This document shows positions 42,228-62,761 of a stretch of 64,000 bases of DNA, one piece after another (within the stretch, counting starts at the first letter, position 1; the number at the start of each line of letters is the position of its first letter). The notes under the pieces are model-generated. The model saw only the letters and a program-made list of their open reading frames with translations. It was not told where the DNA came from and ran no database searches. The stretch comes from Fluviicola taffensis DSM 16823 (GTDB lineage Bacteria > Bacteroidota > Bacteroidia > Flavobacteriales_D > Crocinitomicaceae), in the NCBI RefSeq assembly GCF_943372375.1, contig NZ_CALRYJ010000007.1, positions 85,128 through 149,127 of the forward strand, read 5' to 3'. The position numbers and the translations under genes are program-made.

Positions 42228-42247
42228 GTTGTTTATTGGTATCGTAA

Positions 42248-44487: not shown

Positions 44488-44606
44488 ATACTAGAAATTT
44501 GGTGCAAAGGTACGCTTCTTATTCTAAAAAATAGCCGAAACGGGTGAATTCCTGCGTTAATAATCCCAAATTTCGAGACTTTTAATTCGGATTTCAATAA
44601 AACATA

Positions 44607-44693: not shown

Positions 44694-44716
44694 TTTCATT
44701 CTATTGTTGATTTAGG

Positions 44717-45118: not shown

Positions 45119-45294
45119 CCCTTTAAGTTTAAAAGTTTTGACAAAGATGCATCTTGCTAATTATTTAGTAAAACGGTTTAGTAATACTTGAGAAGAGTGA
45201 GTTGCGATTTTCCGTACAAGAGCCAGCCGCGGCTGGCGATAATGTAACAAACGTTAGTGCGGTTACCAAACAGCGAAGCTTGCGATAAATACAA

Positions 45295-45329
45295 TAAAAA
45301 AAGACCGCCAGCAGTTTCTGACGGTCTTA
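45295..45329 (-). terminator. Intrinsic terminator after the FG-GAP protein gene
   Basis: AAAAAAAGACCGCCAG-CAGTTT-CTGACGGTCTT. Confidence 0.7.
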
Positions 45330-45351
45330 AGTAAAGTAGCAGTATTGGGAA

Positions 45352-48300
45352 TTATCTCGTAAGAATTATTTTTTGCGCAGATTGCTTCCCGTTACTATCC
45401 GTAAAAGTTGCAAAATAGACCCCACTTTCAATACCGTCAAGTTCCAGCATTGTTTTTCCTGATTGTAATGCTTCGGTGTGAATCAATTGACCCGCTGCAT
45501 TGGTGATAACAACTGAAAGCGGATTAACAGTTTCAATGTAGATTGTACCGGCAGTTGGGTTGGGATAGACGCTGAATGCATTTGCTTCCAATTCGTTGAC
45601 AGCAAGATTTGTCAATAGAAAACAACTCGAAGAAACCGAACAAGATCCATTGCTGATAGTAACACCATAATTTCCATTTGCAGTAGGAACATACGTTTGA
45701 CTTGTCGCTCCGGGGATTGTATTTTCCGAATCGCAATCAAACCATTCGTAAGTAGCATTTGCTTGGGTAGCCATGAACGTAGTACCATCAAAGGTGATTT
45801 GGTCGCTCAGTGGAGTATAAATGACCGTTTGCGTTTGTGTAGAACTGTTTCCGGATGCGTCCGTAAAAGTCCAGGTGATGTTGGTTGTACCAGGAGTTGT
45901 GATTGGCAAATCTGAAGTAGTTCCGGTTATTACACCACTACAATTATCTAGTGCTGTCGGAATGACACTCACCGAAATAATCGGGCAATTATCTGTAATA
46001 GTTGGCAAGCTTGCACTTGGAGTTGGTGCAGTAATATCTTGGATAATCACCAATTGTGTTTGGGTGGTTACAAATCCATTAGGACTTGTGTATGTCCAAA
46101 CTACTTCCGTAGTATCCTGCAGTGTTATTGGGAATACCTGAGTAGTCGTACCTGTTGTTAAACCCGTACAATTCATCGTGGCTGTTGGTGCTGTAAGACT
46201 TACAACTTCACATTCTGATAGAACATTCGCAAGATTTGCAACCGTAGGTACAGCAATCGCATCACCGATCGTTAGGTGAAGAATTGCTACTGAATCACAT
46301 CCTTCACTATTTGGCATGGGGTAAACCATCGTAGCTGTAGAAGTGCTTTGAGTATATATATTTCCATCAATCCAAGTATATGGTCCACAAGCATACTGTA
46401 CATCGATAACATTCGATTGCTGGCAGTTGTTGTTTCTGTAGACATTTGATTGAAGACCTGTTACTTCATCATTTCCGCAAATAATTACATCCGGATCAAT
46501 GTCGCCGTCAATATCTCCGAAGGCAGCCATCCCATAAGAAGCTCCAATGAAAGGTGTCCCGGTAATCTCAGTGAATATACCTGAGCCATCATTGGCAAAC
46601 ATTTTCGCAATCGATCCACCTAAACTACTGTGTCCGATGGTCAATAAATCCGAATCTAAATCATTATCGATATCTGCAAACAAAAGCCCGCTTGTAATGG
46701 TCGGTTCGAAAGGCGTTCCTGCAACTAGTGTGAAGGTTCCTGTTCCATCGTTTGTATACAATTGTGCTGCATAGGTGCTTGGAGATCCGATTTCACCGGC
46801 AATGGCTAAATCCATGTCCTGATCATTATCAATATCTGCAAAGGCAATCGAACCTTGCTGTATCCCTGGAAATGGAGAAGGAATCAAGGTGAATGTTCCG
46901 GATCCGTCATTGGTGTATAAATGTGCGATGCGACCAAGATCACCATAACCTGTCAACAACAAATCATCGTCATTATCACCGTCGATATCTGCAAAAGCAA
47001 TATTTCCGTTATTTGAACCCTCAAATGTATTGGAAGCGGATAAAGTAAATGATCCTGAACCATCGTTTAACCAAAGTTGACCAACATTTCCAACGAAAAT
47101 GGTAAATCCGTTAATAAAGACATCTTGATCTCCATCACTGTCCACATCGTTAAACTGGATCGCTCCGGAAGAAACGGGTGGGAATGGAGTATTGGCAACT
47201 TCTGTAAACAATCCGGTTCCATCATTTGTAAACAACTTGACCACCTGACCAGTACCATATCCTGACATCATTAAATCATCATCTCCATCATTATCAATAT
47301 CGGCAAAATCGGCTGCAGCATTGGCAAGACCCGGGAATATATTCGCCGGATCAACTGTGAATCCCCCGTTACCATCGTTGAGGTAAATAAGCGAGTGGAA
47401 ACCTGATGCACCCTGACCATTCATAAACGCATCCAAATCACCGTCGTTATCCACATCTGCCAATTCTACTGCACCATAACTAAGTCCTGTAAACGGAGAT
47501 GTGCTGATTGCTGCAAAAACGCCGTTTCCGTCATTTTGATACAATTTTGCTGTTGAAGAACCGGTAACAACCAGGTCGTCATCTGCATCACCATCTATGT
47601 CTTCAAACGAAACACAGCCATTATAAACGCCTGTAAATGGCGTTCCTGTAACTGGTGTAAACAATCCACTTCCATCGTTGGAATACAAGATCGTATTATT
47701 CCCTAACCCTGGTACACTTCCGCAAATAACAAGGTCTTCGTCACCGTCGCTATCTACATCATTAAAATCGAGCCAGGCACTTCCGAAATCAGAAAAAGAA
47801 CTCGTATTATCCAATGTAAATGCACCAGTACCGTCATTGAAATACAATTTTGTTGTTCCACCTGTATTCGGATCGTTACCTGCAATTACCATATCCATAT
47901 CGGTATCATCATCAATATCCGAAAATGCAATGTCTGAACCGTTTAGTTGAGGGAAACTACTCGCCGTAACGGTGAAAACACCATTTCCGTCATTGAGGTA
48001 CATCCCGGAAAAAGTACCTGAATCCGCATAACCCATCAAGACTAAATCCGCATCACCGTCACCGTCCACATCACCGAATTCTGAGGTACCAAGGTATATT
48101 CCTGTAAAAGTAGCGCTTGCGATCGGATCCAAAGTGAAGTTCCCGGATCCATCATTCAGGTACAAATTTGCTTTTACACCACTGCTTGCTTGTCCGCAAA
48201 TCAGCACATCCATATCGGTATCGCCATCTACATCAGCTGTAGAAATTGAACTGTATCCGACACCATCAAAAGGAGTGCTGGCAACAGTAAATCCTCCCGA

Positions 48301-48693
48301 ACCGTCATTCGTATATAAAACGGCTGTCCAGTTCGAACTGCTTTGTCCACTAACAATTGCATCCTGATCGCCATCATCTTCCACATCTAAAAAGACAATA
48401 GATCCGTCGAAAACGCCTGTAAATGGAGTCGTAGGATCTAATTGGAATGCACCCGAACCGTTATTCAAATACAGGTTACATTTCATCGCGCCTTGCGCAT
48501 TTTGACCGGCAATGAGTAAATCGGCATCCCCGTCATTATCAACATCCGCAGATGCATGAGTACTACCGTTCAATCCTTCCAATTCATCAATGGTTTGAAT
48601 TGCCGGAGGCGGAGGTCCGATCTTTTGAAAATTATTTTGAGCTGTCAGTTGACTGCTCACTGCTAACGCAACTAAAAAGGAAAATCGTTTCAT
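45352..48693 (-). CDS. T9SS type A substrate with 14 FG-GAP/VCBS repeats and Ig-like stalk
   Basis: 14 DxDxDxDxD motifs counted; CTD VYPNPTAGTI..ESGVYF. Start ATG 48693 preferred over 48711. Confidence 0.9.
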   Translation of the reverse strand: MKRFSFLVALAVSSQLTAQNNFQKIGPPPPAIQTIDELEGLNGSTHASADVDNDGDADLLIAGQNAQGAMKCNLYLNNGSGAFQLDPTTPFTGVFDGSIVFLDVEDDGDQDAIVSGQSSSNWTAVLYTNDGSGGFTVASTPFDGVGYSSISTADVDGDTDMDVLICGQASSGVKANLYLNDGSGNFTLDPIASATFTGIYLGTSEFGDVDGDGDADLVLMGYADSGTFSGMYLNDGNGVFTVTASSFPQLNGSDIAFSDIDDDTDMDMVIAGNDPNTGGTTKLYFNDGTGAFTLDNTSSFSDFGSAWLDFNDVDSDGDEDLVICGSVPGLGNNTILYSNDGSGLFTPVTGTPFTGVYNGCVSFEDIDGDADDDLVVTGSSTAKLYQNDGNGVFAAISTSPFTGLSYGAVELADVDNDGDLDAFMNGQGASGFHSLIYLNDGNGGFTVDPANIFPGLANAAADFADIDNDGDDDLMMSGYGTGQVVKLFTNDGTGLFTEVANTPFPPVSSGAIQFNDVDSDGDQDVFINGFTIFVGNVGQLWLNDGSGSFTLSASNTFEGSNNGNIAFADIDGDNDDDLLLTGYGDLGRIAHLYTNDGSGTFTLIPSPFPGIQQGSIAFADIDNDQDMDLAIAGEIGSPSTYAAQLYTNDGTGTFTLVAGTPFEPTITSGLLFADIDNDLDSDLLTIGHSSLGGSIAKMFANDGSGIFTEITGTPFIGASYGMAAFGDIDGDIDPDVIICGNDEVTGLQSNVYRNNNCQQSNVIDVQYACGPYTWIDGNIYTQSTSTATMVYPMPNSEGCDSVAILHLTIGDAIAVPTVANLANVLSECEVVSLTAPTATMNCTGLTTGTTTQVFPITLQDTTEVVWTYTSPNGFVTTQTQLVIIQDITAPTPSASLPTITDNCPIISVSVIPTALDNCSGVITGTTSDLPITTPGTTNITWTFTDASGNSSTQTQTVIYTPLSDQITFDGTTFMATQANATYEWFDCDSENTIPGATSQTYVPTANGNYGVTISNGSCSVSSSCFLLTNLAVNELEANAFSVYPNPTAGTIYIETVNPLSVVITNAAGQLIHTEALQSGKTMLELDGIESGVYFATFTDSNGKQSAQKIILTR

Positions 48694-48835
48694 GAAAATG
48701 TTATAAATCATACTTGTTCACGAAAGTATTGAAAGGATTTGCCGCGATAAAAAATATGGTACGAACGACCAAGTGCTGTACATGAACTTCCTGTTGGGGA
48801 AAAGAACGGTGTTGATGAGGTGCGGAATGCGAAGG

Positions 48836-50905
48836 TTAAACCTTGTCCTTAAAGACGATGATAACGGCCATTTGCTGATCGCTATGGATAGTTATGGTAC
48901 CTGCAATTTGTTTCACCATCAATTGAACCAAGGTAAGTCCGAGGCTGGATTGATCCACAGGGGTGTTTTTTGTTTGCAATCCTACTCCGTTGTCTTTCAC
49001 GCTGAAAATCCAGCTGCCCGAATCGGTTTCGGGAGACAGTGAAACTTGTATTTCACCTTCTCCATTGGGGAAGGCATATTTCAAGGAGTTGGTAATTAAT
49101 TCATTCAGGATGATGGCCAAAGGCATGGCTAGTTTCGTGTGAAAAGAGACAGATGGAACGAAGACCTTCAATTTTACTTGAGGTTTGGACTCCAACAACG
49201 ATGAGTAAAAATCGATCACTCCGTTGAAATAATCTTGCATATTGACTTCCAGTTTCGACTCTCCAAGATGCAGCAGCTGGTGCATTACGGACATAGATTG
49301 GATGCGATTTTCACTTTTCAACAGGTAATCACGGATCTCATTATTTTCCGTTGAATCGGCCTGAATAGACAATAAAGAGGAAATCATCTGTAGACTATTA
49401 TTGACCCGATGATGGACTTCTTGAAGCAACATTTCTTTGTGTTGGTTTTCATTGGCAAGGAAGGCGGCTAATTTCTTTCGGTTGTTAATCGAACGTCGGG
49501 CAAAGTACCAAATAACAAGTCCCGATAGTGAAAAAACAATCAAAATAAGGATGAGGTACCTTTTTTGCTGGCTGCTCAGTTTGTTTTGCTGATTGAGTTG
49601 GGAGATTGCTTTATCGTGTTTGCGTTGCTCCAGATCAGCTTTCTTGTCAAATGAATATTGGAGAACCGTCTGGTAACTTTTTTCTTCTGCCTCCTGATTA
49701 ATAATACTGTCTCTATAAGAAAGCCACTGTTTTTGATGTTGGAAGGCAGATTTAAAATCGTTTGATGCACTATCCAATTGTATCAATGCCGCGTATGAGT
49801 CTCTAATATTTTGCTTCTCACGGATATCAAAACTTTGCCGGAGTGATAAATCAATCAGTGATTTTGCTTTTTTCAATTCTCCAAGTTTGATGTAAACTTT
49901 GGACATAGTCAAATAGGAATTCGTTGTTTCACTAACCTCGTTAACATACACGCTGTTTTTCAAAGAGGTCTCACAAATCGCAATCGCTTCCTGATATTTA
50001 CCGGTGTTGTAATACAATTTTGCTTTGTCGTTGTAAGCGATGGATAAACCAAGTCGATCATCGATGGATGAATAAACACGAATTGCCTTATCATACATTT
50101 TCAGGGCTTCCGGATACCTTTTCAGATCCTTGTAAACGATTCCGATGTTTACATAGGCATTTCCTATTCCATCTTTATCTTGTAAGCGAAGAGCGAGTTT
50201 CAAGGATTTTTGGTACATTCCTAGAGCTGATTCTTCGTTGCCCAGATCAGCATAAACATTGCCAATCGAATTGTATTCGTCCACCTTTCCGCTATCGTCC
50301 CTCAACTTGTCATAGTTTCTTAAGGATTTGAAATGCATTTTCAGCGATTCCGGAAGATTCCCTAAGGCATAGTAGGTAACGCCCAAATTCTGATAGACAT
50401 CCGCAAGTAGATCCGTGTTTTTTGTGCGTTTACCATATTTAAGTGCGTAAAAGTAGCAGCGCAATGAATTTTTATAATCGCTGTTGATATCATAGATTGT
50501 TCCAATATTCACCAAAGCATTCACAAAAGAAAGTTCTTGCTTATACTTTCTGCTATATTCCAGAGAACGGCGATACATTTTTAGAGCTTTATCATATTTC
50601 CCGTCGTATCCATAGGTAAACCCCAGATTTGAATAAGAGATGATAATGCCATTTTTATCATCAATTTTTTTTGATAAAGTCAGTGCTTTCCAACCGTATT
50701 TTAGAGAATTGTAAACATCGCCTTCATCTACAAGATCTGTGCACAAATGATTCAACAAATTAACTTGATTGCTGTCTAATTTAGCGACTTTCAACTCGCT
50801 CAACAGCTTTTGTTGCTTGGCATTTTGCCCGAAACAAGCAGATAAACAGGAGATTACAACAATCAATGAAGTAAGAAGAAAAGAAGCTAATGATCGATTG
50901 TTCAT
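48836..50905 (-). CDS. TPR-repeat sensor histidine kinase (HisKA_2 type)
   Basis: TPR repeats, TM, EVHHRVNNSLQ, ELITNSLKYAF, DNGVG. Start ATG 50905 (MNNRS) preferred. Confidence 0.9.
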   Translation of the reverse strand: MNNRSLASFLLTSLIVVISCLSACFGQNAKQQKLLSELKVAKLDSNQVNLLNHLCTDLVDEGDVYNSLKYGWKALTLSKKIDDKNGIIISYSNLGFTYGYDGKYDKALKMYRRSLEYSRKYKQELSFVNALVNIGTIYDINSDYKNSLRCYFYALKYGKRTKNTDLLADVYQNLGVTYYALGNLPESLKMHFKSLRNYDKLRDDSGKVDEYNSIGNVYADLGNEESALGMYQKSLKLALRLQDKDGIGNAYVNIGIVYKDLKRYPEALKMYDKAIRVYSSIDDRLGLSIAYNDKAKLYYNTGKYQEAIAICETSLKNSVYVNEVSETTNSYLTMSKVYIKLGELKKAKSLIDLSLRQSFDIREKQNIRDSYAALIQLDSASNDFKSAFQHQKQWLSYRDSIINQEAEEKSYQTVLQYSFDKKADLEQRKHDKAISQLNQQNKLSSQQKRYLILILIVFSLSGLVIWYFARRSINNRKKLAAFLANENQHKEMLLQEVHHRVNNSLQMISSLLSIQADSTENNEIRDYLLKSENRIQSMSVMHQLLHLGESKLEVNMQDYFNGVIDFYSSLLESKPQVKLKVFVPSVSFHTKLAMPLAIILNELITNSLKYAFPNGEGEIQVSLSPETDSGSWIFSVKDNGVGLQTKNTPVDQSSLGLTLVQLMVKQIAGTITIHSDQQMAVIIVFKDKV

Positions 50906-51041
50906 TCTGTTTCTGGTGTAGAAGCGTACGTTATTTTTGTATTTGGGGTGCAAGCAACAAATTTTAATGCATTTGTACAAAAGAATGGGATGAACTGCTT
51001 GATTTTGTATGTATCCTACCAGATTTAACCATTGCTGTTCT

Positions 51042-51743
51042 TTATTTGATGAGTTCCATCAGGTTTTCCCGGTAGGTTCTTCCGACTGGTAATTTGATGT
51101 TTTTGATTACAACATGCCCGGAAGCAAATTCCATTATTTTTTTTCGATTCACAACAAATGACCGATGAATGCGGATAAAATCGTTTTCGGGTAATTGTTG
51201 GTGTAAATCAGTGATTACGAATCTCAGCAGACGTTTTTTTTGTGTTTCGGTATGTAACAGGGTGTAATTTCCATCGGCCTCTAGCCATAAAATTTCTTCA
51301 TACGGAACTTGAGCCGTAGCTCGTCCGTCTTTCACCAGTAAGTATTGATCTGCAAGCCTCGATTCAGTGCTTGAATTGAACAGAGCCAATTCCATGGCTA
51401 TCAGCAAATCTTCCCTTTTAAAAGGTTTTACCAAGTAAGCATTCGGATGCGTGAATTTTGCCTTCGTGATCACATCGATACCAGAATGAGAAGTGATGTA
51501 AATAAAAGGGATCTGATACTTTTGGTGCAATAAGTTTCCCAAATCGATTCCCGTTTGCTTCCCTAACAGCATGATGTCGGTTAATACCATTTGAGGGTTT
51601 TCGTTTTCGATAACGGAAATGGCATCTTCTACATTGGTGACGCAGATCGTAGATGTATAACCAACACTCGTTAAGACCCTGGAAATATGCTCTGCTATAA
51701 GCAGCTCATCTTCAACAATTAATATCAGTCCTTTCGAGTACAT
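51042..51743 (-). CDS. LytTR-family response regulator
   Basis: ILIVEDE, TDIML REC; FIRIHRSFVVN LytTR. Confidence 0.92.
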   Translation of the reverse strand: MYSKGLILIVEDELLIAEHISRVLTSVGYTSTICVTNVEDAISVIENENPQMVLTDIMLLGKQTGIDLGNLLHQKYQIPFIYITSHSGIDVITKAKFTHPNAYLVKPFKREDLLIAMELALFNSSTESRLADQYLLVKDGRATAQVPYEEILWLEADGNYTLLHTETQKKRLLRFVITDLHQQLPENDFIRIHRSFVVNRKKIMEFASGHVVIKNIKLPVGRTYRENLMELIK

Positions 51744-51946
51744 TTAATAAAATGAAAAGACGTTCATAAACCTTGAATTCATATGTGTTCCGCGCTTTTT
51801 CTAAAGCACAACGAAGGTATGAAACTTTCGGATGGATGATGTTAGTTTCTCCTGTTTTTTCATTGAAAAAAGTGAAAAAATAAGTTGAAAACGAAAAGGT
51901 TAAATCTGAAACAAAAGCGACAATACATTATTTTTTGAGTGGATGC

Positions 51947-51976
51947 TTGCATTTCAATAAAAAGCGTGTATCTTTG
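51947..51976 (+). promoter_or_regulatory. Housekeeping promoter of the tRNA gene
   Basis: TTG-N19-TATCTTTG. Confidence 0.7.
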
Positions 51977-52040
51977 CAGTCCAATAGCGGAAACGTCTGT
52001 TAGGAATAAAGAAGAAATAGCAATAGTTATAACGATATAT

Positions 52041-52113
<73 letters not shown>

Positions 52114-52118
52114 CAAAG

Positions 52119-52149
52119 AAAAGGTTGTCAAGTTTTGGCAACCTTTTTT
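52119..52149 (+). terminator. tRNA terminator (duplicated at 62723-62756)
   Basis: AAAAGGTTGTCA-AGTTT-TGGCAACCTTTTTT. Confidence 0.8.
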
Positions 52150-52171
52150 GTTTTTATAGAAATCACTATTC

Positions 52172-52417
52172 ATGTTTGTCACCTATGTTTTATACTCTGC
52201 CACTTACAACAAAATCTATGTTGGTTATACATCGGATCTGATTGACCGCTTTCATTCTCACAACCAATTTGCATCAAAAGGTTACACGGTTAAATTTCGC
52301 CCGTGGGAAGTAATCTATGTTGAATTTTTTGACTCAAAGGAAGAAGCCATGAAGCGTGAGAAAGAACTAAAATCTTCCAGAGGAAGGGATTTTATAAAAA
52401 ATAAGATTTTAGAATAG
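52172..52417 (+). CDS. Stand-alone GIY-YIG nuclease
   Basis: TYVLYS..KIYVGYTSDL..R..HN, AMKREKELKS; 81 aa; stop TAG is the start of a tRNA-derived repeat. Confidence 0.9.
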   Translation: MFVTYVLYSATYNKIYVGYTSDLIDRFHSHNQFASKGYTVKFRPWEVIYVEFFDSKEEAMKREKELKSSRGRDFIKNKILE

Positions 52418-52483
52418 CTCGTCGGGCTCATATCCGTCAGCTGACGGACGCACGTTTCCGCCGCGGCGGATGTCCCCGCTACA
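52415..52483 (+). pseudogene. Partial tRNA-fMet copy with two palindromic replacements
   Basis: TAGCTCGTCGGGCTCATA[TCCGTCAGCTGACGGA]CGCACGTT[TCCGCCGCGGCGGA]TGTCCCCGCTACA, followed by a hairpin and T-run at 52487-52517. Confidence 0.9.
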
Positions 52484-52635
52484 AGGAAAAAAGGTTAATC
52501 GCAAGATTAGCCTTTTTTTATGCGCAATTTTTTGAAACGACGAGAAGTTTATGCCGACATGATTTTCAGGGAACGCGGAAGGTGTCTAGTCCTAAAATAG
52601 CGATACACAAAAAGAATAGGACTAAGACATCCGAA

Positions 52636-54183
52636 TCACACTGCCGGAATCGATTGAAAACTATTGAAGTAATCGGTCGGGTCCCAACATTTTTTAACCT
52701 CTTTCAGACGCGGAAGATTTTCGCCAAAATACAGTTGTAGAGCACCTTCCAATCCACCGAAGGCATTCAGATCAGAATCGGGATAATTGTAATAGCAGCC
52801 ATCCACGTTATCTGTCGGATCGAGTTGAGGATTGGGGGTTCCGCCTGTCTCTATGTAAACAGTCGTATAGAATTCATTCATCCAATCCAGAAAAGCATGA
52901 TCATCTTTTTCTTCTGTCCAATAAGCCTGATATTGCAATTTGAGGATTGATGAGCGTTGAGGAATTGCTGTTTCTGTAGGAGAAACCGTATTTATTTCCC
53001 CTCCGTAAGTATCCACTTGCAGCAAACACTGCGTCATGTCTTGCGGTGTGAGCGATTGAGGAACAAGCGTAAGATATTTGTAAATTGCTTCGATCTGATA
53101 CATCGGGAATCCTTTCCGCATATAAGCGGATTTGTATTTTCCGCGTTGATTGGCTCCTGAACCGTTTAACGTTTGAACTGCCTCATAAAATGTATAACTC
53201 AAGGTATGAGCTACCGGCTGAGCAAATCCGCCCAGGTGAGTTGCAGAAGGCCTTGTGTTGAGTTGGTAGGTTACCAATCCGCTTAAGTCCTCAAGTATAT
53301 TGTTGATGTAACGTTGCCTGATTATTTCCGGGTTTTCGGATTTTAAAACTGCCGTTTGAATCGTCATGACAATTGCTCCTTGAGCCTGATGATGCAGTGC
53401 TAAAATTCCAAATTGCCTCCAGTTATCAGACCCTTCTGCAATTGCAGTAAAACGAGTCAAAACTGCATCTAAAATTTCTGGTGTGAGCTCACTCCAATCG
53501 ATACTTAGTTGCGTGATAAAAGCAGAAACGGGACTGTCTGGTAAGTCTTTGAAATAATATCGGGTAATAACTCCGAAATTTCCACCTCCACCGCCTTGAT
53601 GTCCCCAAAAAAGGTTTTGTTCATCGGGATCTTCAGATTCCTTTGAAACATAGATCACAGACGCGGGTTCTTCCGGATTTGGCTTAACCACCACTTCTAC
53701 TCCCGTCAACCAATCAACAGTTAATCCGTTCAGGCGCGATAGCAATCCGTAACCACCACCGCAAATATGTCCACCCAAACCGACAGAATAACATGATCCG
53801 GCAGGAAGTACTTTTCCGTAATCCCGGAAAAGGCTATTGAAAGCACTCCAATTTGTTCCGCCCGAATCCAGATAATATCCTTTTTCCGGATCATATCCGC
53901 AATCACTCATTGCGGAAACATCAATAATCGCCTTGGTTTTAGCACTGAAAACAAAGTTTTCATAACAATGCCCTCCGCTTTTGATTTTAACGTTTTTCCC
54001 ATACAGGGAAATCGCTTCTTCCAAAGCAACAGCTACTCCTTGAGGAGAATAGCATACATAAACGACTTCGCAGAAACCTGCCTGCCAACGTTGGTTAAAA
54101 CCTTGTAAAAAACTGGGAAATCTTGGGTCTGTTGCTGAGATAGGGTATTTGGAAAAACCTTTTGTATTGCTTTGTTGGTTCAT
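52636..54183 (-). CDS. FAD-linked oxidase (BBE/VAO family), hexose-oxidase-like, predicted bicovalent FAD
   Basis: KSGGHCYENF, PAGSCYSVGLGGHICGGG, GGGGGNFG, BBE domain YYNYPD..WDPTDYF. Confidence 0.88.
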   Translation of the reverse strand: MNQQSNTKGFSKYPISATDPRFPSFLQGFNQRWQAGFCEVVYVCYSPQGVAVALEEAISLYGKNVKIKSGGHCYENFVFSAKTKAIIDVSAMSDCGYDPEKGYYLDSGGTNWSAFNSLFRDYGKVLPAGSCYSVGLGGHICGGGYGLLSRLNGLTVDWLTGVEVVVKPNPEEPASVIYVSKESEDPDEQNLFWGHQGGGGGNFGVITRYYFKDLPDSPVSAFITQLSIDWSELTPEILDAVLTRFTAIAEGSDNWRQFGILALHHQAQGAIVMTIQTAVLKSENPEIIRQRYINNILEDLSGLVTYQLNTRPSATHLGGFAQPVAHTLSYTFYEAVQTLNGSGANQRGKYKSAYMRKGFPMYQIEAIYKYLTLVPQSLTPQDMTQCLLQVDTYGGEINTVSPTETAIPQRSSILKLQYQAYWTEEKDDHAFLDWMNEFYTTVYIETGGTPNPQLDPTDNVDGCYYNYPDSDLNAFGGLEGALQLYFGENLPRLKEVKKCWDPTDYFNSFQSIPAV

Positions 54184-54287
54184 GTGAATAGTTTAAGAGT
54201 CTAAATATATCATTTTGCGCCCAAATGCAGTCGTTTGAAAAAGCTTGCCCTTTGAAAAACCAATATATACGTTTTGCGGCGGGAACG

Positions 54288-54377
54288 CATAACCCGAAGG
54301 ATGCACGTTTCCGCCGCGGCGGATGTCCCCGCTACACCGAACGAAGGGCATCATTTCTGATGCCCTTCGTTATTTTT
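54288..54377 (+). pseudogene. Partial tRNA-fMet copy with TCCGCCGCGGCGGA replacement, plus 14-bp-stem hairpin
   Basis: CATAACCCGAAGGATGCACGTT[TCCGCCGCGGCGGA]TGTCCCCGCTACA; AACGAAGGGCATCA/TGATGCCCTTCGTT. Confidence 0.88.
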
Positions 54378-54412
54378 GCATCTTCCGAAACCCTTGCCAT
54401 TGCTGAGATTCT

Positions 54413-54600
54413 CTAAAAAAAGACATTCACTCTCAATGTTCGATACTCGCCTTTTTTGAAGTCATACACCAAACCCTCAGGAAATAGCATTTTTTGAATT
54501 CGCTTTTTACTTTCTTCGCTCAATTCGTCGAAAGATTCTAACAGGATAGCCTTCATCGGTTCAATGAATTTAGGATTAGCGAGTGTATATGCGACTAATC
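54413..54600 (-). pseudogene. Decayed C-terminal fragment resembling a large serine recombinase
   Basis: Own translation: ..KKRIQKMLFPEGLVYDFKKGEYRTLRVNVFF*; no catalytic domain; points toward the tRNA-derived repeat. Family call from recalled similarity. Confidence 0.55.
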
Positions 54601-54701
54601 TGTTACCAACACAATTGCTCCGACCAGCGGAAAGATCAGCGGCAGATGATTTACCACCAAATGAAAATGAGCATCATTCATAATAATACAATTTTATTTT
54701 A

Positions 54702-55421
54702 TTAAACATTCACTCCAAAGAGATAACCGACCAATGCGGATAAGCCCATTGCCAGCGTTCCCCAAATAGTAATTCTCAAAACGGCCTTTGGTACTTTTGA
54801 ACCACCTGTTCTTGCCGAAATTATTCCCAAGGTAGCCAGGAACAAGATGGTAAAACCATATAGCCAATATTCCATAACTTGAACTGGAGCAAACAAAACA
54901 ACCAATAACGGTAAAGCTCCTCCGATTGTAAATGCTCCACACGATGCCATAGCTGCCTGTATTGGTTTCGCTTGACTTACCTCATTTATTCCTAATTCAT
55001 CTCTTACATGAGCATCCAGCGCATTGTGCTCCGTCAACTCCATAGCAACCTGCATAGCAGTTTCCTTTTTCAACCCTCTCTTTTCATAAATCTGAGCTAA
55101 AATATTCAATTCCTGTTCAGGCATTTCCTTCAGTTCTTCAATTTCCCGTTCAATATCTGCCTTTTCGGTATCGGTTTGAGAACTTACAGAAACATATTCG
55201 CCGGCAGCCATAGATAAAGCTCCGGCTACCAAACCGGCTACAGTCGCCAAAACTATAGGTTCTCTTGAATCACTTGCTGTTGCAATTCCTATTGCAAGAC
55301 TGGATAATGAAATAATCCCATCATTTGCACCCAAAACAGTTGCTCTTAACCAATTACTGCGATGAATAAAGTGATTATCCAAATAGTTGTCAATTGTCAG
55401 TAATTCAGATTTCTTTTTCAT
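54702..55421 (-). CDS. VIT1/CCC1-family Fe/Mn transporter
   Basis: WLRATVLGANDGIIS, SMAAGEYVSVSSQ, IGGALPLL. Confidence 0.92.
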   Translation of the reverse strand: MKKKSELLTIDNYLDNHFIHRSNWLRATVLGANDGIISLSSLAIGIATASDSREPIVLATVAGLVAGALSMAAGEYVSVSSQTDTEKADIEREIEELKEMPEQELNILAQIYEKRGLKKETAMQVAMELTEHNALDAHVRDELGINEVSQAKPIQAAMASCGAFTIGGALPLLVVLFAPVQVMEYWLYGFTILFLATLGIISARTGGSKVPKAVLRITIWGTLAMGLSALVGYLFGVNV

Positions 55422-55660
55422 AGTTTCTACAAATTCATCAGTGATGGGGTTACTCGATATCTTCCTTAGCTATATTTAGCTGATTCCTAACATGAAGTTT
55501 TAAATTAGGAAAAGGGATTTAATAAACAAGGATATCCAGAATAAATCAAGTTTACAATGATATAAATCAGTTAATTAATTCAATTTCCGGCTTCAAAGCT
55601 ATTATTAGTTATTATGTTGAACTTTTTGAATCTACGAATTGTTAAAATTCAAATCAAAAG

Positions 55661-55720
55661 GAAAATGACCAGGTAAACTTCGATTTGGAAGAAGGTCCGA
55701 AAGGATTCAATGCAGTGAAT
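55661..55720 (+). pseudogene. Cold-shock protein (Csp) remnant
   Basis: Own translation ENDQVNFDLEEGPKGFNAVN matches a CSD C-terminal half; no intact start or N-terminal half. Confidence 0.6.
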
Positions 55721-55751
55721 GGTTTCCCTCTTTTTATTAAAAGTTATCTCG

Positions 55752-55858
55752 CTAAAGTAAACTTATATTGTTTATGTCCTCAGCCACTTCCTTGTTCGAT
55801 ACCGGTCGTTTATCCGCGACTAGTGAAACGGTAATCAATTTTTGGTTACCGTTTTTTT
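55752..55858 (-). other. att-arm-like junction 1 (hairpin plus conserved arm)
   Basis: Minus frame VADKRPVSNKEVAEDINNISLL*; 25/29 nt identical to 62678-62706; hairpin AAACGGTAATC..GGTTACCGTTT. Confidence 0.55.
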
Positions 55859-55873
55859 ATGTCTAAGATTTTT

Positions 55874-55953
55874 GAAGGTCGCACGTTTTCGCGGTGGCGT
55901 ATGTCCCCTCTACACCGAACGACAGGGTATCAGAAAGATGCCCTTCGTTATTT
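55874..55953 (+). pseudogene. Degenerate partial tRNA-fMet copy plus hairpin related to 54288-54377
   Basis: GAAGGTCGCACGTT[TTCGCGGTGGCGTA]TGTCCCCTCTACACCGAACGA..GATGCCCTTCGTTATTT; insert is 10/14 identical to TCCGCCGCGGCGGA. Confidence 0.8.
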
Positions 55954-55959
55954 CATGCA

Positions 55960-57024
55960 TTAGATATCCGAAGGATTTGTGTCGAAGACCTTCTTAAAAA
56001 CCGCCGAAAACTTACTCGCATTTTCGTAACCGAATAAGCCGGCAACCTCTTTGATAGCGTATTTCCTCTGTAAAAGGAGCTCTCTGGCAGCCATCATTTG
56101 TTTTTTACTAAAAAACTGATACACACTTGTACCATGCATTCCCTTAAAATCATTTTTGAGTTTGGTTGGAGAAACACCTACTTTCCGGGCTATTTTTTCA
56201 ATCCCGGGGAAATCACCGAACAAGTGATCATTTAAGAACTGTTCTGCACGCTGAATGTTCTTGCGGTCATTATCGTTGAGTTTGAAGTGATTCTCCGAAA
56301 TGATCTCTGTATTGAGCTTTTCGATGAACTCAAACAAGATCCGATAGGTCAACTGCTGAATGACTTCCTTATTTTGATCGACACCCTTCTGTGCCAACTC
56401 CATCATTTCATGCCAGATGGATTCATAGACCGGGTCTGTTTCGTCTAAAATCAAAAAGGTATTCGGTGATTCAAAGAAATCAGCTAGCTTGCTGTTCCGG
56501 GACACCTGGTTCGCCTCTTTTTGTTGCTCCAACCACCTGCTGGTAAAAAAAACGGTGATATTCTTTTCTTCCGAATTCTTAAAGTGGTACTCGGTTTGTG
56601 AACATCCGGCTTTAAACAGGGACCAGGTATTTCCTTTGGTCACCAATCCGTTGACCATGGATTTATTGACGAGTGTGGTTGTTTTGACGTGTAAATTGAT
56701 AAAGTGATATTCCAGAGGAAGTTTCTCGTCATACAAGTTGCGCATGAGGAGGTTTTTTTGGAAATGCAGGTTAGAAATCATGACCCAGAGTTCGGTTTCC
56801 GGGTTGCAATAGTACATCATCGATTTCAGGAAAATACTGGCAGATGACAGTGATTTTCGGATCGGATCATGCTTGGTGAAAGGCATTTGATCAAAACTCT
56901 CAATCATGGTTTCAGGCGACTGAAACAAATTATTCAACTGATAACTTCCATCCTTATAACCGACTTTATAACGCTGAAACTTTTTATACCAGGCGGCCAA
57001 GATGTTCGAAAACGTTCCTTCCAT
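55960..57024 (-). CDS. AraC-family transcriptional regulator
   Basis: C-terminal IEKIARKVGVSPTKLKNDFKGMHG..IKEVAGLFGYENASKFSAVFKK. Start 57024 preferred; 57105 possible. Confidence 0.9.
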   Translation of the reverse strand: MEGTFSNILAAWYKKFQRYKVGYKDGSYQLNNLFQSPETMIESFDQMPFTKHDPIRKSLSSASIFLKSMMYYCNPETELWVMISNLHFQKNLLMRNLYDEKLPLEYHFINLHVKTTTLVNKSMVNGLVTKGNTWSLFKAGCSQTEYHFKNSEEKNITVFFTSRWLEQQKEANQVSRNSKLADFFESPNTFLILDETDPVYESIWHEMMELAQKGVDQNKEVIQQLTYRILFEFIEKLNTEIISENHFKLNDNDRKNIQRAEQFLNDHLFGDFPGIEKIARKVGVSPTKLKNDFKGMHGTSVYQFFSKKQMMAARELLLQRKYAIKEVAGLFGYENASKFSAVFKKVFDTNPSDI

Positions 57025-57158
57025 GGGCGAAAGATACTTCAAGGATTTCGTTTTTCGAAGACTTCCGTTCTCCTTTTTGAAAAAACAAATGTCTTTTTGG
57101 AGCATGCTCCCTTTCCGATTCCACCTTAATTTCGAACCGGATTACAACTTATTCAATA

Positions 57159-60100
57159 ATGAAAAAACTACGCACTGGCCATTGGTCGCTAAACTCCGTA
57201 CAATGGAACCGGAAAGGATTCTTTTCACGGATCATCGCCGCTCTTATTTTTCTCTTAACCTTCCAGAATGCCTCTGCTCAACTGATTGCTCAGGTAAGTG
57301 ACTATGTGGGAAGTGGGTTGAATGAAAGCCAGGATGGAACTTTAACACAGGCGGGATTTAAAGACGTAACCAGTATTTGTAGCGATGGAAATAACAACTT
57401 GTATGTACTTGAGATAGTTAATGGTAAGATCCGAAAAATTACCCCATCGGGAATCGTCACAACTATTTATAGCGATCTGAATCAAAACTTTTTCGGTTCA
57501 GGTGGACTATCCGCCGCAATCCACGTGGATGCATTCTCCAATATCTATGTGTCCAGAGGGTACACAATTGCAAAAATAACCGGTCAGCACACATTCCAGA
57601 TCATTGCAGGTTCTCTTACAGAAGTAGGGTATACAAACAACAACATCGCCGGTCAAGGTCAAAATGCACGCTTTTCGTTCCTAAACTCCATGACATCGGA
57701 TATCTTTGGGAATCTGTATATTTCTGAAATAGGAGAAATAGCTTCAACTGAACGTTTTAGAATCAGACGGATCAATCCGTTTAATCAAAAAGTTGAAACA
57801 CTGTTTACGAGCCAAAAACCGATTTACGGTTTATGTTTCGATGCAAACGGAAATTTTGTTTTTGGAGAAGGGTTTTCGGTTGTGAAACTAAATCCACAAA
57901 CAATGGTAAAAACGGTAGTTGCCGGACATCCAACAGAAAGTAATCATATTAGCGGCCCCGGCACTGCTGCTCGTTTTCGCTCTATCGCTGATATTAAAGT
58001 GGTAAACAACGATATCTACGTCTTGGAGTGTGTTCCCAGGGTAATCAGGAGCTTTTCGAGTGCGTTTTCGAATGATTATAAATATGCTAAAAACTATTGT
58101 TATATCACGAAAATTTCCAATACGAATGTGGTTACCGATATTGCAGGAGGAGAAATAGGTGATGCAAATGGTGTAGGATTAAATGCCCGTTTCTATGGTC
58201 CATGCGGAATGGTAAAGAACTCTTCCGGAGATTTATTTATCTTGGATGATATGAAGAACTTGATCCGCAAGATCACATTTGTACCTCCAGCTCCAGCTCC
58301 CACACCTACTTATGTAAATGCTACTCCTTCTATTTGTTTGGGAAGTACGGTAGACCAACCGGCAACCATCACAGGGGCTGAGATGAGTCTTCAAATAACG
58401 AATGAAACTGTTCCTGTTTCCAGTGGGATTAAGGCCGCTTGCCGCAACCAGAATTTTGCATTTGTAGCAACGTCAAATGATGAAATCAAAAAATACGATT
58501 TTAACGGGAATCTGGTCGAAACCCTGCCTGCCATGCTGACGAATATTACCGGTATAGCTGCAGATTCCGTTAACCAGATTTATGCCGTTGCACAGGATAA
58601 TTCACTTCCTTCCTTAACTGCTGTTTATCGCCTACAGCCTAGCGGTAACATCGATCTTTCATGGGGTCCCACGACGTCAGGAGTTCTGAACAATGTATCT
58701 GCCATTGCCATGGGTAGTGACGACGGATTGATTTATGTGGCCGATACCTCAACGAGCTATATTTCATCCATTAATCCGGTAACTGCTGCCATCACCAACT
58801 TACCTGCTCCCGGGAACCTGCAATTGAGTTATTTCAAACCGGTGAGCATGGCCTTTGACGTCTTCGGGGACATGTACCTGGCAGATATCGGCGGAAACCA
58901 AATCCTGAAACGCAGCAAAGCAGACAACAATTACTACCCGGTATTCCCGGGATTGGAGAACGATACGCTGAAGATCGACGGAATCAGCATTGCACACTCC
59001 GAATCCGGATACATGTACTTGTCTTCCTCTGCCCGAAATGTGGTGTATGAATTGGGTGCGAATGCAGCCTATGATACCACAGTTGTCGGAAGAAAATTTT
59101 CGAATACGACCGAATTCAGTACGGGTTTCTCTCTGGATGAACCGATCAACGTCATCGCTATGAGTTCGAATAATGCGGGTGTACTCCTAATTCCCAATAA
59201 AGCAAGCGGTGAGATGAGAAAACTCGCCTACTTTATGATGAAAATTGCTCCGAGATTGCCGAAAGGCTTATTCTTCGATCCTAACACCGGAACCATTCAC
59301 GGAACTCCACTACAGGTTGCGCCATACACCACTTACACCATTACTGCGTATGGACCAACAGATAGCACGATGACAAATCTTGCATTCTCTGTAGACCCTT
59401 CGAGCCTGGTTTCCAACAATATCGGGAATAAAACCTCTGCAATCATCAACACGGGTGATGGATTGGCAGTGAATTTCTACGACAATTCCGGTTGTGAGCC
59501 TTTGGCTACCATCACGGACATCACGGACGGAAATCCAACAGGAAGCACGCAAGTGAAGCAAACAGTAGCAACCAACCTTCCGTTCTTCACTACCAGCGCA
59601 GGAGATACCAAATTTGTACGTCGTACAACGGAAGTCAATTCTCAGAAAATGGATTCCGCGAACGTACGCATCGAGTTGTATTTCACACACGCGGATATTG
59701 TGCATTACAATGCCAACAACGGAACTCAAACCGATTTCTCGAACGACACCACTGCAGGCACCATGGCAATGAGTATCCTGCAATTGCATACGGCTTCAAG
59801 CGGAAATACCCAACCTATTACACATAATACAACCGCAACGTGGAACACTTCCAAACAAGTGTGGGCAGCGAATTTCCCGGTAACCAAGTTCAGTACCTTC
59901 ATGGCCACCACACCGGATGCTTTGACTACGTTTGAATGTGAAAGCACCGAATCCACGGAATTTGCTTTCGGCTGTACCTCTGCCGAATACAACGGAGTTA
60001 GCTACACCGTAGACGGAGAGTATACGCTGAATTACCAAAACCAATACGGTTGTGACAGTATTGTGCACTTAATCGTGTTCCTGGATAACAACTCCGAAAT

Positions 60101-60572
60101 TACCATGATCGGCTCAGACACCCTGAAAGCATTGAATACGGCCAGCGGAACAACTTACCAGTGGGTAAATTGTGATAACAACTATGCAATTATTCCAGGA
60201 GCAACTGACAGTCTTTTCTTCGCAGCGGATACCGGAAGCTATGCTTGTATCATTACAAACACCGTTTGTGCAGACACTTCGGTTTGTGCGTACATTCAGG
60301 AGATTGGTGGAACCACCGGAATTGATCCGAATGGAAACATCTTTAACTATAAGATTTCACCGAACCCAACCAACGGTTTGGTACAGATCAGTTCCAGTTT
60401 CAATCAGCTGAACATTGAAATTTACAATGCACTGGGTGTGAAAGTCTTTGAAAAACGAACAGATTCCGGAATTACTTCGTGTAACCTATCGGAATTCGAT
60501 GCGGGGATTTACCTGATTCGTATGAGCAACGAAAGAGGTCAGATCATCACCGACCGAATCATCAAACAATAA
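57159..60572 (+). CDS. T9SS type A substrate with NHL/SMP-30-like propeller repeats
   Basis: DGNNNLYV, GQNARF, GLNARFYGPCG NHL-type repeats; LPKGLFFDPNTGTIHGTP Ig-like domain; CTD ISPNPTNGLV..AGIYLIR. Confidence 0.85.
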   Translation: MKKLRTGHWSLNSVQWNRKGFFSRIIAALIFLLTFQNASAQLIAQVSDYVGSGLNESQDGTLTQAGFKDVTSICSDGNNNLYVLEIVNGKIRKITPSGIVTTIYSDLNQNFFGSGGLSAAIHVDAFSNIYVSRGYTIAKITGQHTFQIIAGSLTEVGYTNNNIAGQGQNARFSFLNSMTSDIFGNLYISEIGEIASTERFRIRRINPFNQKVETLFTSQKPIYGLCFDANGNFVFGEGFSVVKLNPQTMVKTVVAGHPTESNHISGPGTAARFRSIADIKVVNNDIYVLECVPRVIRSFSSAFSNDYKYAKNYCYITKISNTNVVTDIAGGEIGDANGVGLNARFYGPCGMVKNSSGDLFILDDMKNLIRKITFVPPAPAPTPTYVNATPSICLGSTVDQPATITGAEMSLQITNETVPVSSGIKAACRNQNFAFVATSNDEIKKYDFNGNLVETLPAMLTNITGIAADSVNQIYAVAQDNSLPSLTAVYRLQPSGNIDLSWGPTTSGVLNNVSAIAMGSDDGLIYVADTSTSYISSINPVTAAITNLPAPGNLQLSYFKPVSMAFDVFGDMYLADIGGNQILKRSKADNNYYPVFPGLENDTLKIDGISIAHSESGYMYLSSSARNVVYELGANAAYDTTVVGRKFSNTTEFSTGFSLDEPINVIAMSSNNAGVLLIPNKASGEMRKLAYFMMKIAPRLPKGLFFDPNTGTIHGTPLQVAPYTTYTITAYGPTDSTMTNLAFSVDPSSLVSNNIGNKTSAIINTGDGLAVNFYDNSGCEPLATITDITDGNPTGSTQVKQTVATNLPFFTTSAGDTKFVRRTTEVNSQKMDSANVRIELYFTHADIVHYNANNGTQTDFSNDTTAGTMAMSILQLHTASSGNTQPITHNTTATWNTSKQVWAANFPVTKFSTFMATTPDALTTFECESTESTEFAFGCTSAEYNGVSYTVDGEYTLNYQNQYGCDSIVHLIVFLDNNSEITMIGSDTLKALNTASGTTYQWVNCDNNYAIIPGATDSLFFAADTGSYACIITNTVCADTSVCAYIQEIGGTTGIDPNGNIFNYKISPNPTNGLVQISSSFNQLNIEIYNALGVKVFEKRTDSGITSCNLSEFDAGIYLIRMSNERGQIITDRIIKQ

Positions 60573-60582
60573 TTAACAAACA

Positions 60583-60610
60583 AAGAGGATGTGTCTAGAC
60601 GCATCCTCTT
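60583..60610. terminator. Intergenic hairpin
   Basis: AAGAGGATGTGTCTAGACGCATCCTCTT. Confidence 0.55.
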
Positions 60611-60643
60611 CCTGTTTCAATCACATAATCAGTTATTTAAAAA

Positions 60644-62620: not shown

Positions 62621-62650
62621 GACTAGTGTGATTAAACATAGGGTCTCCTG

Positions 62651-62761
62651 TTAAAAGCAGGTAATAATGTCTGCATCTTCAGCGAGTTCATTGTTCGATA
62701 CCGGTAGCCTTCCCGCTACAAAGAAAAAGGTTGTCAAGTTTTGGCAACCTTTTTTTGTTTT
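62651..62761. repeat. Right junction: conserved arm plus tRNA 3' end and terminator repeat
   Basis: Minus frame VAGRLPVSNNELAEDADIITCF*; CCCGCTACAAAGAAAAAGGTTGTCAAGTTTTGGCAACCTTTTTTTGTTTT. Confidence 0.85.

Follow-up and report, generated by a model that had tools for sequence, protein, structure and literature searches.

Palindromes of 14-16 nucleotides (nt) in a 64-kb stretch of the Fluviicola taffensis DSM 16823 genome (contig NZ_CALRYJ010000007.1, from a lake metagenome, positions 85,128 to 149,127 of the forward strand; the whole stretch is called the window below) are the hallmark hairpins of a gene module that is conserved and widespread in Bacteroidota. In order, the module comprises a putative promoter, an intact tRNA-Met(CAU) gene, a terminator, a gene for a GIY-YIG nuclease of ~80 amino acids (aa), a hairpin-bearing pseudo-tRNA and a second terminator, and in the window it extends from 51968 to 52519 (Table 1). 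A full-text literature search, in which not all journals were covered, returned no description of it, and the module is apparently undescribed so far. An earlier note on this stretch had read the palindromes as an ultra-short mobile family that substitutes for existing hairpin sites. They do form one real family, and the co-occurrence that the note had proposed to look for holds on its GIY-YIG side: the palindromes go with a GIY-YIG gene, at 52172-52417 in the window and in the modules of related loci. No HUH/Y1 transposase of the REP/RAYT kind was found, the sole conserved gene being the GIY-YIG nuclease.

Conservation of the module across Bacteroidota

A scan of one genome per species revealed 433 stretches encoding relatives of the nuclease, and the comparative counts below rest on 80 of these loci (423 kb in total), except that hairpin position after the open reading frame (ORF) was counted over 81 sources. 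L-numbers denote loci of other genomes or contigs. An intact tRNA-Met(CAT) lies within 200 nt upstream of the nuclease gene and on the same strand in 63/80 loci, with a median spacer of 56 nt. Of the other loci, most belong to arrays or lie on truncated contigs. The order tRNA, terminator, ORF is found in 63/80 loci, while true upstream repeat arrays occur in few (for example, L026 and L058). In 71/81 sources, which come from several Bacteroidota orders, a copy of the genome's own tRNA comes after the ORF, and in this copy ~10 nt after ..CATA are replaced by TCCGYC-N2-4-GRCGGA, a hairpin with a 6-base-pair stem. The hairpin occupies exactly A38-T47 of the tRNA copy in 70/80 loci. Modules occur with the initiator-type tRNA and with a second type of CAU tRNA, and throughout it is the duplicated copy that is altered, the functional tRNA beside the nuclease gene remaining unaltered. 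At the canonical site the hairpin takes the forms TCCGTCAGCTGACGGA (41 copies), TCCGCCAGAGGCGGA, TCCGCCGCGGCGGA (the Flavobacterium form), TCCGCCAGCTGGCGGA and TCCGCCTGAGGCGGA. Overall, the module is syntenic and vertically inherited within Crocinitomicaceae, and it also occurs in several orders, with two CAU tRNA types and with degenerate copies.

Counted strictly, the hairpin family is represented 131 times in the 423 kb of loci, against 0.78 expected. The canonical site accounts for 110 of these hairpins, and a further 20 lie elsewhere in pseudo-tRNAs or terminators; only one falls outside a module, in ~400 kb of flanking sequence. In the window, the looser pattern TCCG-N6-8-CGGA occurs 10 times against 1.8 expected, a count reached by 0/100 shuffles, and this excess together with that in the related loci excludes chance. 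All three strict copies in the window are inside pseudo-tRNAs. The genome-wide dispersal that the earlier note had envisaged is thus not supported: in the 80 loci, 130/131 family hairpins are confined to tRNA-Met/GIY-YIG modules, and the rest of the window has none.

Organization of the module in the window

The putative promoter, a -7 box ~65 nt 5' of the tRNA, opens a block conserved with relatives, similarity to which begins at ~51942; the same box is present in L010 at 2800-2807. The box may function as a promoter. The tRNA that follows (tRNA-Met CAT, 52041-52114) is the single real tRNA in the window according to both ARAGORN and Rfam and has initiator features, namely a GGG/CCC anticodon stem and a 1:72 mismatch. 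Terminator T1 sits directly 3' of the tRNA and is separated from the GIY-YIG start codon by 22 nt; it recurs at 55825-55855 with 73% identity and at 62725-62761 with 95%. No promoter box was found ahead of the GIY-YIG ORF, where the gap between terminator and ATG is 14-56 nt. Since the only box precedes the tRNA, the nuclease is likely to be expressed through read-through of T1.

Table 1 Features of the module and of related tRNA copies in the window
Feature	Position	Strand	Basis or remark
Putative promoter box, Bacteroidetes-type -7, TATCTTTG	51968-51975	+	Read from sequence
tRNA-Met(CAU), intact, initiator-type	52040-52114	+	ARAGORN 52041-52114; Rfam tRNA model 61.9 bits
Terminator T1	52117-52149	+	Terminator scan: 15-pair stem then T run
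GIY-YIG nuclease gene, 81 aa, Slx1/UPF0213 clade	52172-52417	+	Pfam PF01541, E 1e-18
Pseudo-tRNA 1	52415-52483	+	Alignment to tRNA; BLAST identical blocks 18/18, 12/12
Canonical hairpin TCCGTC-AGCT-GACGGA	52433-52448	.	Replaces tRNA A38-T47
Secondary hairpin TCCGCC-GC-GGCGGA	52457-52470	.	Replaces C56-G62, T-loop and T-stem
Terminator T3, 3' of pseudo-tRNA 1	52491-52519	+	Stem, loop and T run read; aligns with L003
Pseudo-tRNA 2	54276-54336	+	T-loop hairpin 54310-54323; A38-T47 intact, 5' part rearranged
Terminator T2	54340-54371		3' of pseudo-tRNA 2
Degenerate tRNA remnant psi' and T1-like terminator (55825-55855)	55765-55857	+	Repeat families D7, D9
Pseudo-tRNA 3, positions ~42-76	55874-55914	+	Decayed hairpin TTCGCGGTGGCGTA 55888-55901
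T2-like terminator	55924-55944		3' of pseudo-tRNA 3
tRNA-3'-end remnant psi'' and T1 copy (95% identical)	62664-62761	+	Repeat families D7, D9

Pseudo-tRNA 1 is a copy of tRNA positions ~21-76 that starts at the TAG stop codon of the nuclease ORF. Compared with tRNA-Met, ACCCGAAGGT (positions 38-47) is replaced by the 16-mer TCCGTCAGCTGACGGA at 52433-52448, and CGAGTCG (positions 56-62) by the 14-mer TCCGCCGCGGCGGA at 52457-52470, the latter recurring at 54310-54323. Flanks are intact, the three remaining blocks of the pseudo-tRNA being identical to the tRNA (18/18, 8/8 and 13/13), and neither replaced segment shows a target duplication. On the replacements, their coordinates, the intact flanks and the lack of target duplication the earlier note was accurate, although it had overlooked the start of the copy at a GIY-YIG stop codon and the tRNA-3'-like remnants at 55765-55857 and 62664-62761. 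It was also accurate in describing a decayed version at 55888-55901 (10/14 positions agree with the 14-mer) and a 13/14 variant, TCCGCCGCGACGGA, at 6693-6706. No terminal inverted repeats with target-site duplication, as in miniature inverted-repeat transposable elements or insertion sequences, were seen at the junctions examined, where segments are replaced rather than inserted into.

The segment lost at A38-T47 comprises the 3' strand of the anticodon stem and the variable loop, and the hairpin in its place has a predicted energy of -8.1 kcal/mol. T3, which closes the module, is orthologous to the terminator behind the L003 pseudo-tRNA. Beyond 52041-52114, ARAGORN and Rfam recognize no cloverleaf that would make any of the copies a functional tRNA, and at Rfam gathering thresholds the tRNA is the only known RNA family in the window. 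A search for RNA-seq of a carrier returned none, and in RNA runs the sequence words in common with the locus were tRNA words only. Two other accounts of pseudo-tRNA 1 were rejected: a P-nucleotide or fold-back origin of the hairpins, as the arms are not inverted copies of the flanks, and a class II tRNA with a long variable arm, as the 3' strand of the anticodon stem is missing.

A catalytic-domain-only nuclease of the Slx1/UPF0213 clade

The 81-aa protein consists of the catalytic domain only, according to both Pfam and an AlphaFold model with a predicted local distance difference test score of 95.8. Its conserved Tyr, Tyr, Arg, His/Tyr and Glu catalytic residues mark it as a GIY-YIG protein, and Y5, Y16, G18, R26, H30 and E63 are invariant across 28 relatives. 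A profile search of the PDB returned the UPF0213 proteins EF2693 (6e-6) and BH0048 (1e-5) and then SLX1 (9e-4). Similarly, the best Foldseek matches were UPF0213, HIGLE and Slx1 (template modelling scores of 0.55-0.73), the matches to I-TevI (E 0.39) and UvrC being far weaker. On these profiles and the predicted fold, we assign the nuclease to the bacterial Slx1/UPF0213 clade of the GIY-YIG superfamily. The subfamily is sizeable, its profile matching 1,208 clusters (50% identity) at E <= 1e-10. No DNA-binding domain for a long recognition site, a trait of homing endonucleases, accompanies the catalytic part within the 81 aa.

The gene is under strong purifying selection, with a ratio of non-synonymous to synonymous substitution of 0.07 against L003, where synonymous differences are saturated (0.6-0.9 per site). 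The protein matched none of the PADLOC defence models or NCBIfam models. In IMG/VR it gave a single spurious 14-residue match and in PLSDB a single distant match, in a 2.6-Mb Acetoanaerobium noterae record; the module is absent from these phage and plasmid collections.

Three distant UPF0213-type GIY-YIG genes were also seen in suggestive surroundings. The gene in L086 is flanked across the whole locus by hairpins of the form TTGCGAGGA[TCCG..CGGA]CGACGAAGCAATC, that in L100 (~3970-4450) lies directly 3' of a class II tRNA and a long hairpin, and that in L192 (8797-9350) is followed by four ATCCTGAG..CGAAGGAT hairpins. These loci hint at a wider link of the nuclease clade with hairpin repeats or tRNA genes.

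Age and joint decay of the canonical hairpin

Genes upstream of the tRNA in five relatives (L002, L010, L012, L022 (Wandonia) and L037) match window 42248-45118 at 75-96% aa identity, so the locus has been inherited vertically within Crocinitomicaceae. Although synonymous sites in the nuclease gene are saturated, the window and L001-L003 do not differ in the hairpin or in the tRNA-like sequence on either side of it. Across 48 distinct sequences of the 16-nt class, 98.6% of stem positions in the alignment are paired, with compensatory changes at two stem positions (U-A to C-G in 12 sequences), while loops drift around AGCT and 61/113 canonical-site copies are perfect DNA palindromes. Because stems are conserved and covary while synonymous sites of the nuclease are saturated, the 52433 hairpin is old, inherited with the locus and under purifying selection. 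The type of hairpin at the canonical site is TC in 41 loci and CC in 24, with none mixed, and follows nuclease relationships with a nearest-neighbour concordance of 59/65. The 52433 palindrome is therefore not a recent insertion, given that the same A38-T47 replacement is found in 71/81 sources, is syntenic and selectively maintained, and never mixes types.

Where the nuclease is lost, the partner hairpin and pseudo-tRNA appear to decay as well. In L010 (3001-3240) the GIY-YIG gene is a pseudogene with an in-frame stop, and the pseudo-tRNA with its hairpin is missing, the tRNA and T1 being intact. The window itself contains a second module, at 55765-55960, that is decayed and from which the expected GIY-YIG ORF appears to have been deleted. 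Window 55752-55856 has 82% identity to L001 2869-2972, where the GIY-YIG gene that follows is still intact, and the hairpin of this second module is degenerate.

Lesions of the T-loop, secondary hairpins and arrays

The palindrome in the T-loop (52457, 54310 and 55888) is, by comparison of orthologues, a secondary and lineage-specific member of the same hairpin family. Orthologous pseudo-tRNAs were recognized through their downstream terminators, and filled and empty sites of the kind that the earlier note had asked for do exist: the window and L023 have a filled T-loop (with TCCGACGTGGCGGA at this site in L023), and L003, L012 and L037 an empty one. The orthologous pseudo-tRNAs of L001 and L002 have a different hairpin insertion. 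Pseudo-tRNAs 2 and 3 of the window have the T-loop replacement alone and share a terminator, and a single event followed by duplication, as proposed for the three T-loop copies, is plausible.

The 3' part is disrupted in 29/78 downstream pseudo-tRNAs, and upstream pseudo-tRNAs end within or just past the T arm, where 15 of the 16 scored are truncated and one is intact. Overall, the 7-nt T-loop occupies 28% of the compared span and contains 21/42 mapped breakpoints. Hairpins of the same family account for many of the lesions (for example, TCAGTC..GACTGA, TTCGYC..GRCGAA and ACAGTC..GACTGT), and several T-loop insertions are exactly 20 nt long. The replaced segments had been taken for mini-palindromes that serve as targets; this is mere resemblance, and T-loop insertion points differ between loci. 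Secondary hairpins are also found in the D arm (L053, L058 and L072), in a terminator loop (L009) and nested in the primary hairpin (L009, L053 and L075), in each case without flanking homology or target duplication. Most agree in type (TC or CC) with the primary hairpin of their locus; the 14-mer of the window, L009 and L023 does not. About a dozen loci contain tandem arrays of nuclease, pseudo-tRNA and terminator with a period of ~365 nt, or ORF-less pseudo-tRNA arrays with periods of 90-120 nt.

Palindromes outside the module

The mobile, substituting family proposed earlier stands in one part: family hairpins do occupy several non-homologous sites without target duplication or flanking homology. 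It fails in the other, as the hairpins are confined to modules. The 6693-6706 variant has a broken stem and unrelated flanks, with no GIY-YIG gene or tRNA nearby, and no link to the module was found, the surrounding repeat having no copy in the window or the loci. A permissive Rfam scan of window 6450-6800 gave nothing credible, and the stretch around 6693 folds no better than shuffled sequence. The intergenic region at 6560-6775, which is rich in hairpins and contains TCTCCCCTTGAGGGGAGA at 6582-6599 as well as the 6693 variant, is not repeated anywhere else in the window or in any of the loci. A similar motif, CTCTCCCC..GGGGAGAGGGTG, stands immediately next to TCCGTCAGCTGACGGA in two metagenome contigs (L105 and L164).

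A scan of metagenomes for the 16-mer returned at least 120 contigs. Among the matches listed, only L134 and L140 are canonical modules; most are chance-like or lie in other palindromic repeats, and many place the 16-mer at the apex of larger, unrelated REP-like hairpins. With so large a collection, apex sites of this kind are to be expected whatever the palindrome, and the scan says nothing for or against mobility. Among viral contigs the 16-mer was found in 28, against 7 and 1 for two composition-matched control palindromes (a raw excess of 4- to 28-fold), but after removal of near-duplicates ~19 unrelated and mostly coding contexts remain and the excess shrinks. Two further contigs have the 16-mer in other tRNA isotypes. 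In L143 (511-585), a pseudo-tRNA-Lys just upstream of the intact gene has its anticodon arm replaced by TCCGTCAGCTGACGGA and its T arm additionally disrupted by TCCGCCGGTTGGCGGA; in L111 (1-60), a pseudo-tRNA-Gly, likewise just upstream of the intact gene, has its anticodon arm replaced by TCCGTCAGCTGACGGA. Free genome-wide mobility is not supported, and a process wider than tRNA-Met is conceivable.

A possible mechanism and its alternatives

The mechanism that we consider most likely, with moderate confidence and on the strength of sequence comparison, the structural model and analogy, is breakage and repair of tRNA genes combined with hairpin replacement. The nuclease, made in small amounts when transcription reads through the tRNA terminator, would act on stem-loop or branched DNA of the heavily transcribed tRNA gene, above all in the T-loop. 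Recombinational repair of the breaks would give rise to partial tandem duplicates, among them copies on the upstream side that extend only as far as the T-loop, copies on the downstream side that begin in the D arm, and arrays of nuclease and pseudo-tRNA. The essential tRNA copy would be held intact by selection, while spare copies would persist once a family hairpin had replaced arms of the cloverleaf. Such a replacement would remove both the tRNA-like structure and the break sites, and would also cut the direct repeat that could let recombination delete the nuclease gene. The hairpins may then spread among tRNA-derived copies by gene conversion. Conservation of the hairpin sequence suggests that the hairpin is likely also a cis element recognized by the nuclease, as DNA or RNA.

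Several points weigh against breakage and repair. It is hard to see how a catalytic domain of 81 aa would be directed to a particular sequence, and the intact tRNA retains all putative break sites, so that the logic of 'immunity' covers spare copies only. The T arm is intact in 49/78 downstream pseudo-tRNAs, making its disruption frequent and not required. Breakage and repair gives no reason for one particular hairpin sequence throughout, and neither it nor the RNA role weighed below explains how hairpins arrive at sites without flanking homology. Stable, non-patchy inheritance in Crocinitomicaceae fits a maintained function better than active homing. Finally, the 16-mer lies in other tRNA isotypes in L143 and L111, with no GIY-YIG gene seen within these contig stretches.

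A serious rival, and the main one, although we judge it unlikely, is that the pseudo-tRNA is a functional RNA co-transcribed with the nuclease, which might inhibit the protein like an antitoxin, offer it a site for autoregulation or act as a decoy. Protein binding would then be the role of the hairpin, with extra hairpins and arrays adding sites in the manner of type III toxin-antitoxin systems. The layout is operon-like, in that an RNA gene or array and a terminator precede an ORF without promoter, which is followed by a structured RNA and another terminator; the upstream pseudo-tRNA arrays of L026 and L058 have periods of 90-120 nt, and each unit has its own leader. All hairpins lie within the transcribed module, their stems are conserved and covary while loops vary, their type tracks nuclease lineage (41 TC versus 24 CC; 59/65), and nuclease and hairpin decay jointly. 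The Slx1-like fold group includes HIGLE, which has been reported to cut RNA hairpins, and a fusion of an Slx1-like domain to the tRNA methylase TrmH has been noted (PMC1564403). On the other side, the ancestral hairpin is a perfect DNA palindrome including its loop (61/113), which is needless for an RNA hairpin, and the strict link to CAU tRNAs and the clustering of breakpoints in the T-loop are left without a reason. The GIY-YIG domain is classically a DNA nuclease, and the protein has no match among PADLOC defence models.

The reading of the earlier note, in which autonomous ultra-short palindromes move genome-wide and substitute for hairpin tips, tRNA copies being one kind of target, seems to us distinctly improbable. 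It would account for the non-homologous sites (T-loops, D arms, the terminator loop of L009 and the nested hairpins of L009, L053 and L075), for the several T-loop insertions of exactly 20 nt, and for the identical 16-mer in the anticodon arms of pseudo-tRNA-Lys (L143) and pseudo-tRNA-Gly (L111). The capping of larger REP-like hairpins by the 16-mer in many contigs, among the metagenome matches listed, and the 28 viral contigs against 7 and 1 for the controls point the same way. However, 130/131 hairpins in 423 kb are in modules, the window otherwise has only the broken 6693 variant, and the canonical site is uniform with a lineage-specific hairpin type. De-duplicated viral matches amount to ~19 unrelated, mostly coding contexts, exact 16-mer matches are expected by chance and in palindrome-rich repeats given the size of the collection, and to our knowledge no transposase-like activity is known for GIY-YIG proteins. 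Far less probable still, and already largely refuted, is that the pseudo-tRNAs are attL/attR remnants of serial island integration at the tRNA 3' end, with the palindromes in att sites. tRNA genes are classic integration sites, and cargo genes do lie between successive tRNA-3'-like remnants. Against this, there is no integrase or recombinase in 45-63 kb, the duplicated segment begins in the D arm and includes a terminator copy, the replaced segments are internal to the copy, and the arrangement recurs in at least 70 loci with only the 81-aa nuclease gene in between.

We also tentatively raise the possibility that a minimal Slx1-like nuclease and a 14-16-nt cognate hairpin make up a two-part system that remodels tRNA genes by writing the hairpin into arm loops of spare copies. 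Such remodelling may extend to other isotypes, as in the pseudo-tRNA-Lys and pseudo-tRNA-Gly with the same 16-mer, and would yield either a new class of hairpin-based selfish elements or expressed anticodon-loop decoy RNAs that protect initiator tRNA.

Relation to known systems

The closest precedent for the proposed mechanism is SegB, a free-standing GIY-YIG homing endonuclease encoded in the tRNA gene cluster of T4/T6-like phages (PMC13096335). The motif at which SegB cuts within tRNA genes, RAWTSGAAC, is the T-loop sequence GTTCSAWTY in reverse complement, and the resulting breaks drive recombination-dependent tandem amplification of segB and tRNA; its setting is phage, and no preference for a tRNA isotype is reported (PMC13096335). 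The module resembles this system in having a GIY-YIG gene among tRNA genes, tandem arrays of nuclease and pseudo-tRNA, and breakpoints clustered in T-loops. Unlike SegB, a ~220-aa member of the I-TevI/Seg clade with a DNA-binding region, the nuclease described here has 81 aa and an Slx1/UPF0213 fold, is chromosomal, tied to CAU tRNAs and vertically inherited, and has a conserved hairpin-substituted pseudo-tRNA that SegB loci are not reported to have.

In sequence and fold, the protein is most similar to Slx1, UPF0213 (EF2693 and BH0048) and plant HIGLE, which are structure-specific GIY-YIG nucleases. The substrates of Slx1 are branched and stem-loop DNA, as would suit a nuclease encoded beside a conserved hairpin, but eukaryotic Slx1 has a RING domain and needs Slx4. 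For bacterial UPF0213, the full-text literature search found no described function, tRNA linkage or cognate hairpin. REP/RAYT systems (REPINs) likewise consist of one nuclease-type gene flanked by short GC-rich palindromes of one family with covarying stems. RAYTs, however, are HUH/Y1 proteins and not GIY-YIG nucleases, and REPs occupy tens to hundreds of extragenic sites, whereas the hairpins here are confined to the module (80 loci and flanks). Mobile endonuclease ORFs of fungal mitochondria (for example, in Allomyces atp6) bring a replacement 3' end for the gene that they invade, and these genomes contain GC-cluster or double-hairpin elements. The parallel lies in an essential gene kept functional via a duplicated 3' part, a displaced dead 3' copy downstream and short mobile hairpins; the differences are that these systems are organellar, have protein-coding targets and leave a displaced copy that decays without a conserved, selected hairpin. 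Type III toxin-antitoxin systems (ToxIN) share the layout of an RNA gene or array, a terminator that throttles read-through and then a nuclease ORF, but use a ToxN-type endoRNase and 34-36-nt repeats.

Free-standing GIY-YIG nucleases linked to tRNAs were thus already known, and there is a real chance that the partnership with a hairpin is something new. Bacterial UPF0213/Slx1-like GIY-YIG proteins form a large family without a known role, one subfamily of which now gains a precise context beside an essential tRNA-Met gene and a hairpin-substituted tRNA copy, making the hairpin or tRNA-gene stem-loops candidate substrates. The module may be seen as a chromosomal counterpart to SegB-driven tRNA amplification in phages, and might account for the arrays of tRNA pseudogenes and the small genes labelled 'GIY-YIG family protein' in Bacteroidota annotations. 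Active placement would make the hairpins the shortest sequence-specific mobile unit so far described in bacteria, and the pseudo-tRNAs, should they be expressed decoys, would bear on how cells protect initiator tRNA.

Neighbouring sequence and other repeats in the window

Downstream of the module, ~10 kb of unrelated cargo (52484-62761) alternates with tRNA-3'-like remnants, each with a terminator copy, and the stretch 3' of the tRNA is ended by psi'' (62664-62761). The cargo genes encode a BBE/FAD oxidoreductase, a VIT-family transporter, an AraC regulator and two surface proteins sorted by the type IX secretion system. No integrase or recombinase gene was found in window 45-63 kb, and no recombinase is conserved across related loci. 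Upstream, a 6.7-kb block (45230-51940) encoding a 1119-aa repeat-rich protein, a TPR-HisKA_2 histidine kinase and a LytTR response regulator is missing from L002, L010, L012, L022 and L037, in which orthologues of 42248-45118 directly precede the tRNA-fMet promoter.

In pseudo-tRNA 2, the first 12 nt (GCGGCGGGAACG) are complementary to the T-stem and left arm of the hairpin (CGTTTCCGCCGC), within window 54276-54323. Pairing of GCGGCGGGAACG with CGTTTCCGCCGC gives a long predicted helix (z = -4.0), and the 5' part of this pseudo-tRNA may be a remnant of another hairpin-bearing copy. Between pseudo-tRNAs 1 and 2, matches to TCCG-N-CGGA also occur inside the BBE oxidoreductase ORF (53115-53130, 53327-53340 and 53815-53828), one of which, TCCGCATATAAGCGGA, has a 5-base-pair stem; these are probably driven by codon usage. 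Farther upstream, terminator-like hairpins of the form GAAACAAGTCGGGGCGAAAA..TTTTCGCCCCGACTT at 36280-36323 and 42191-42234 are 91% identical and lie 5.9 kb apart.

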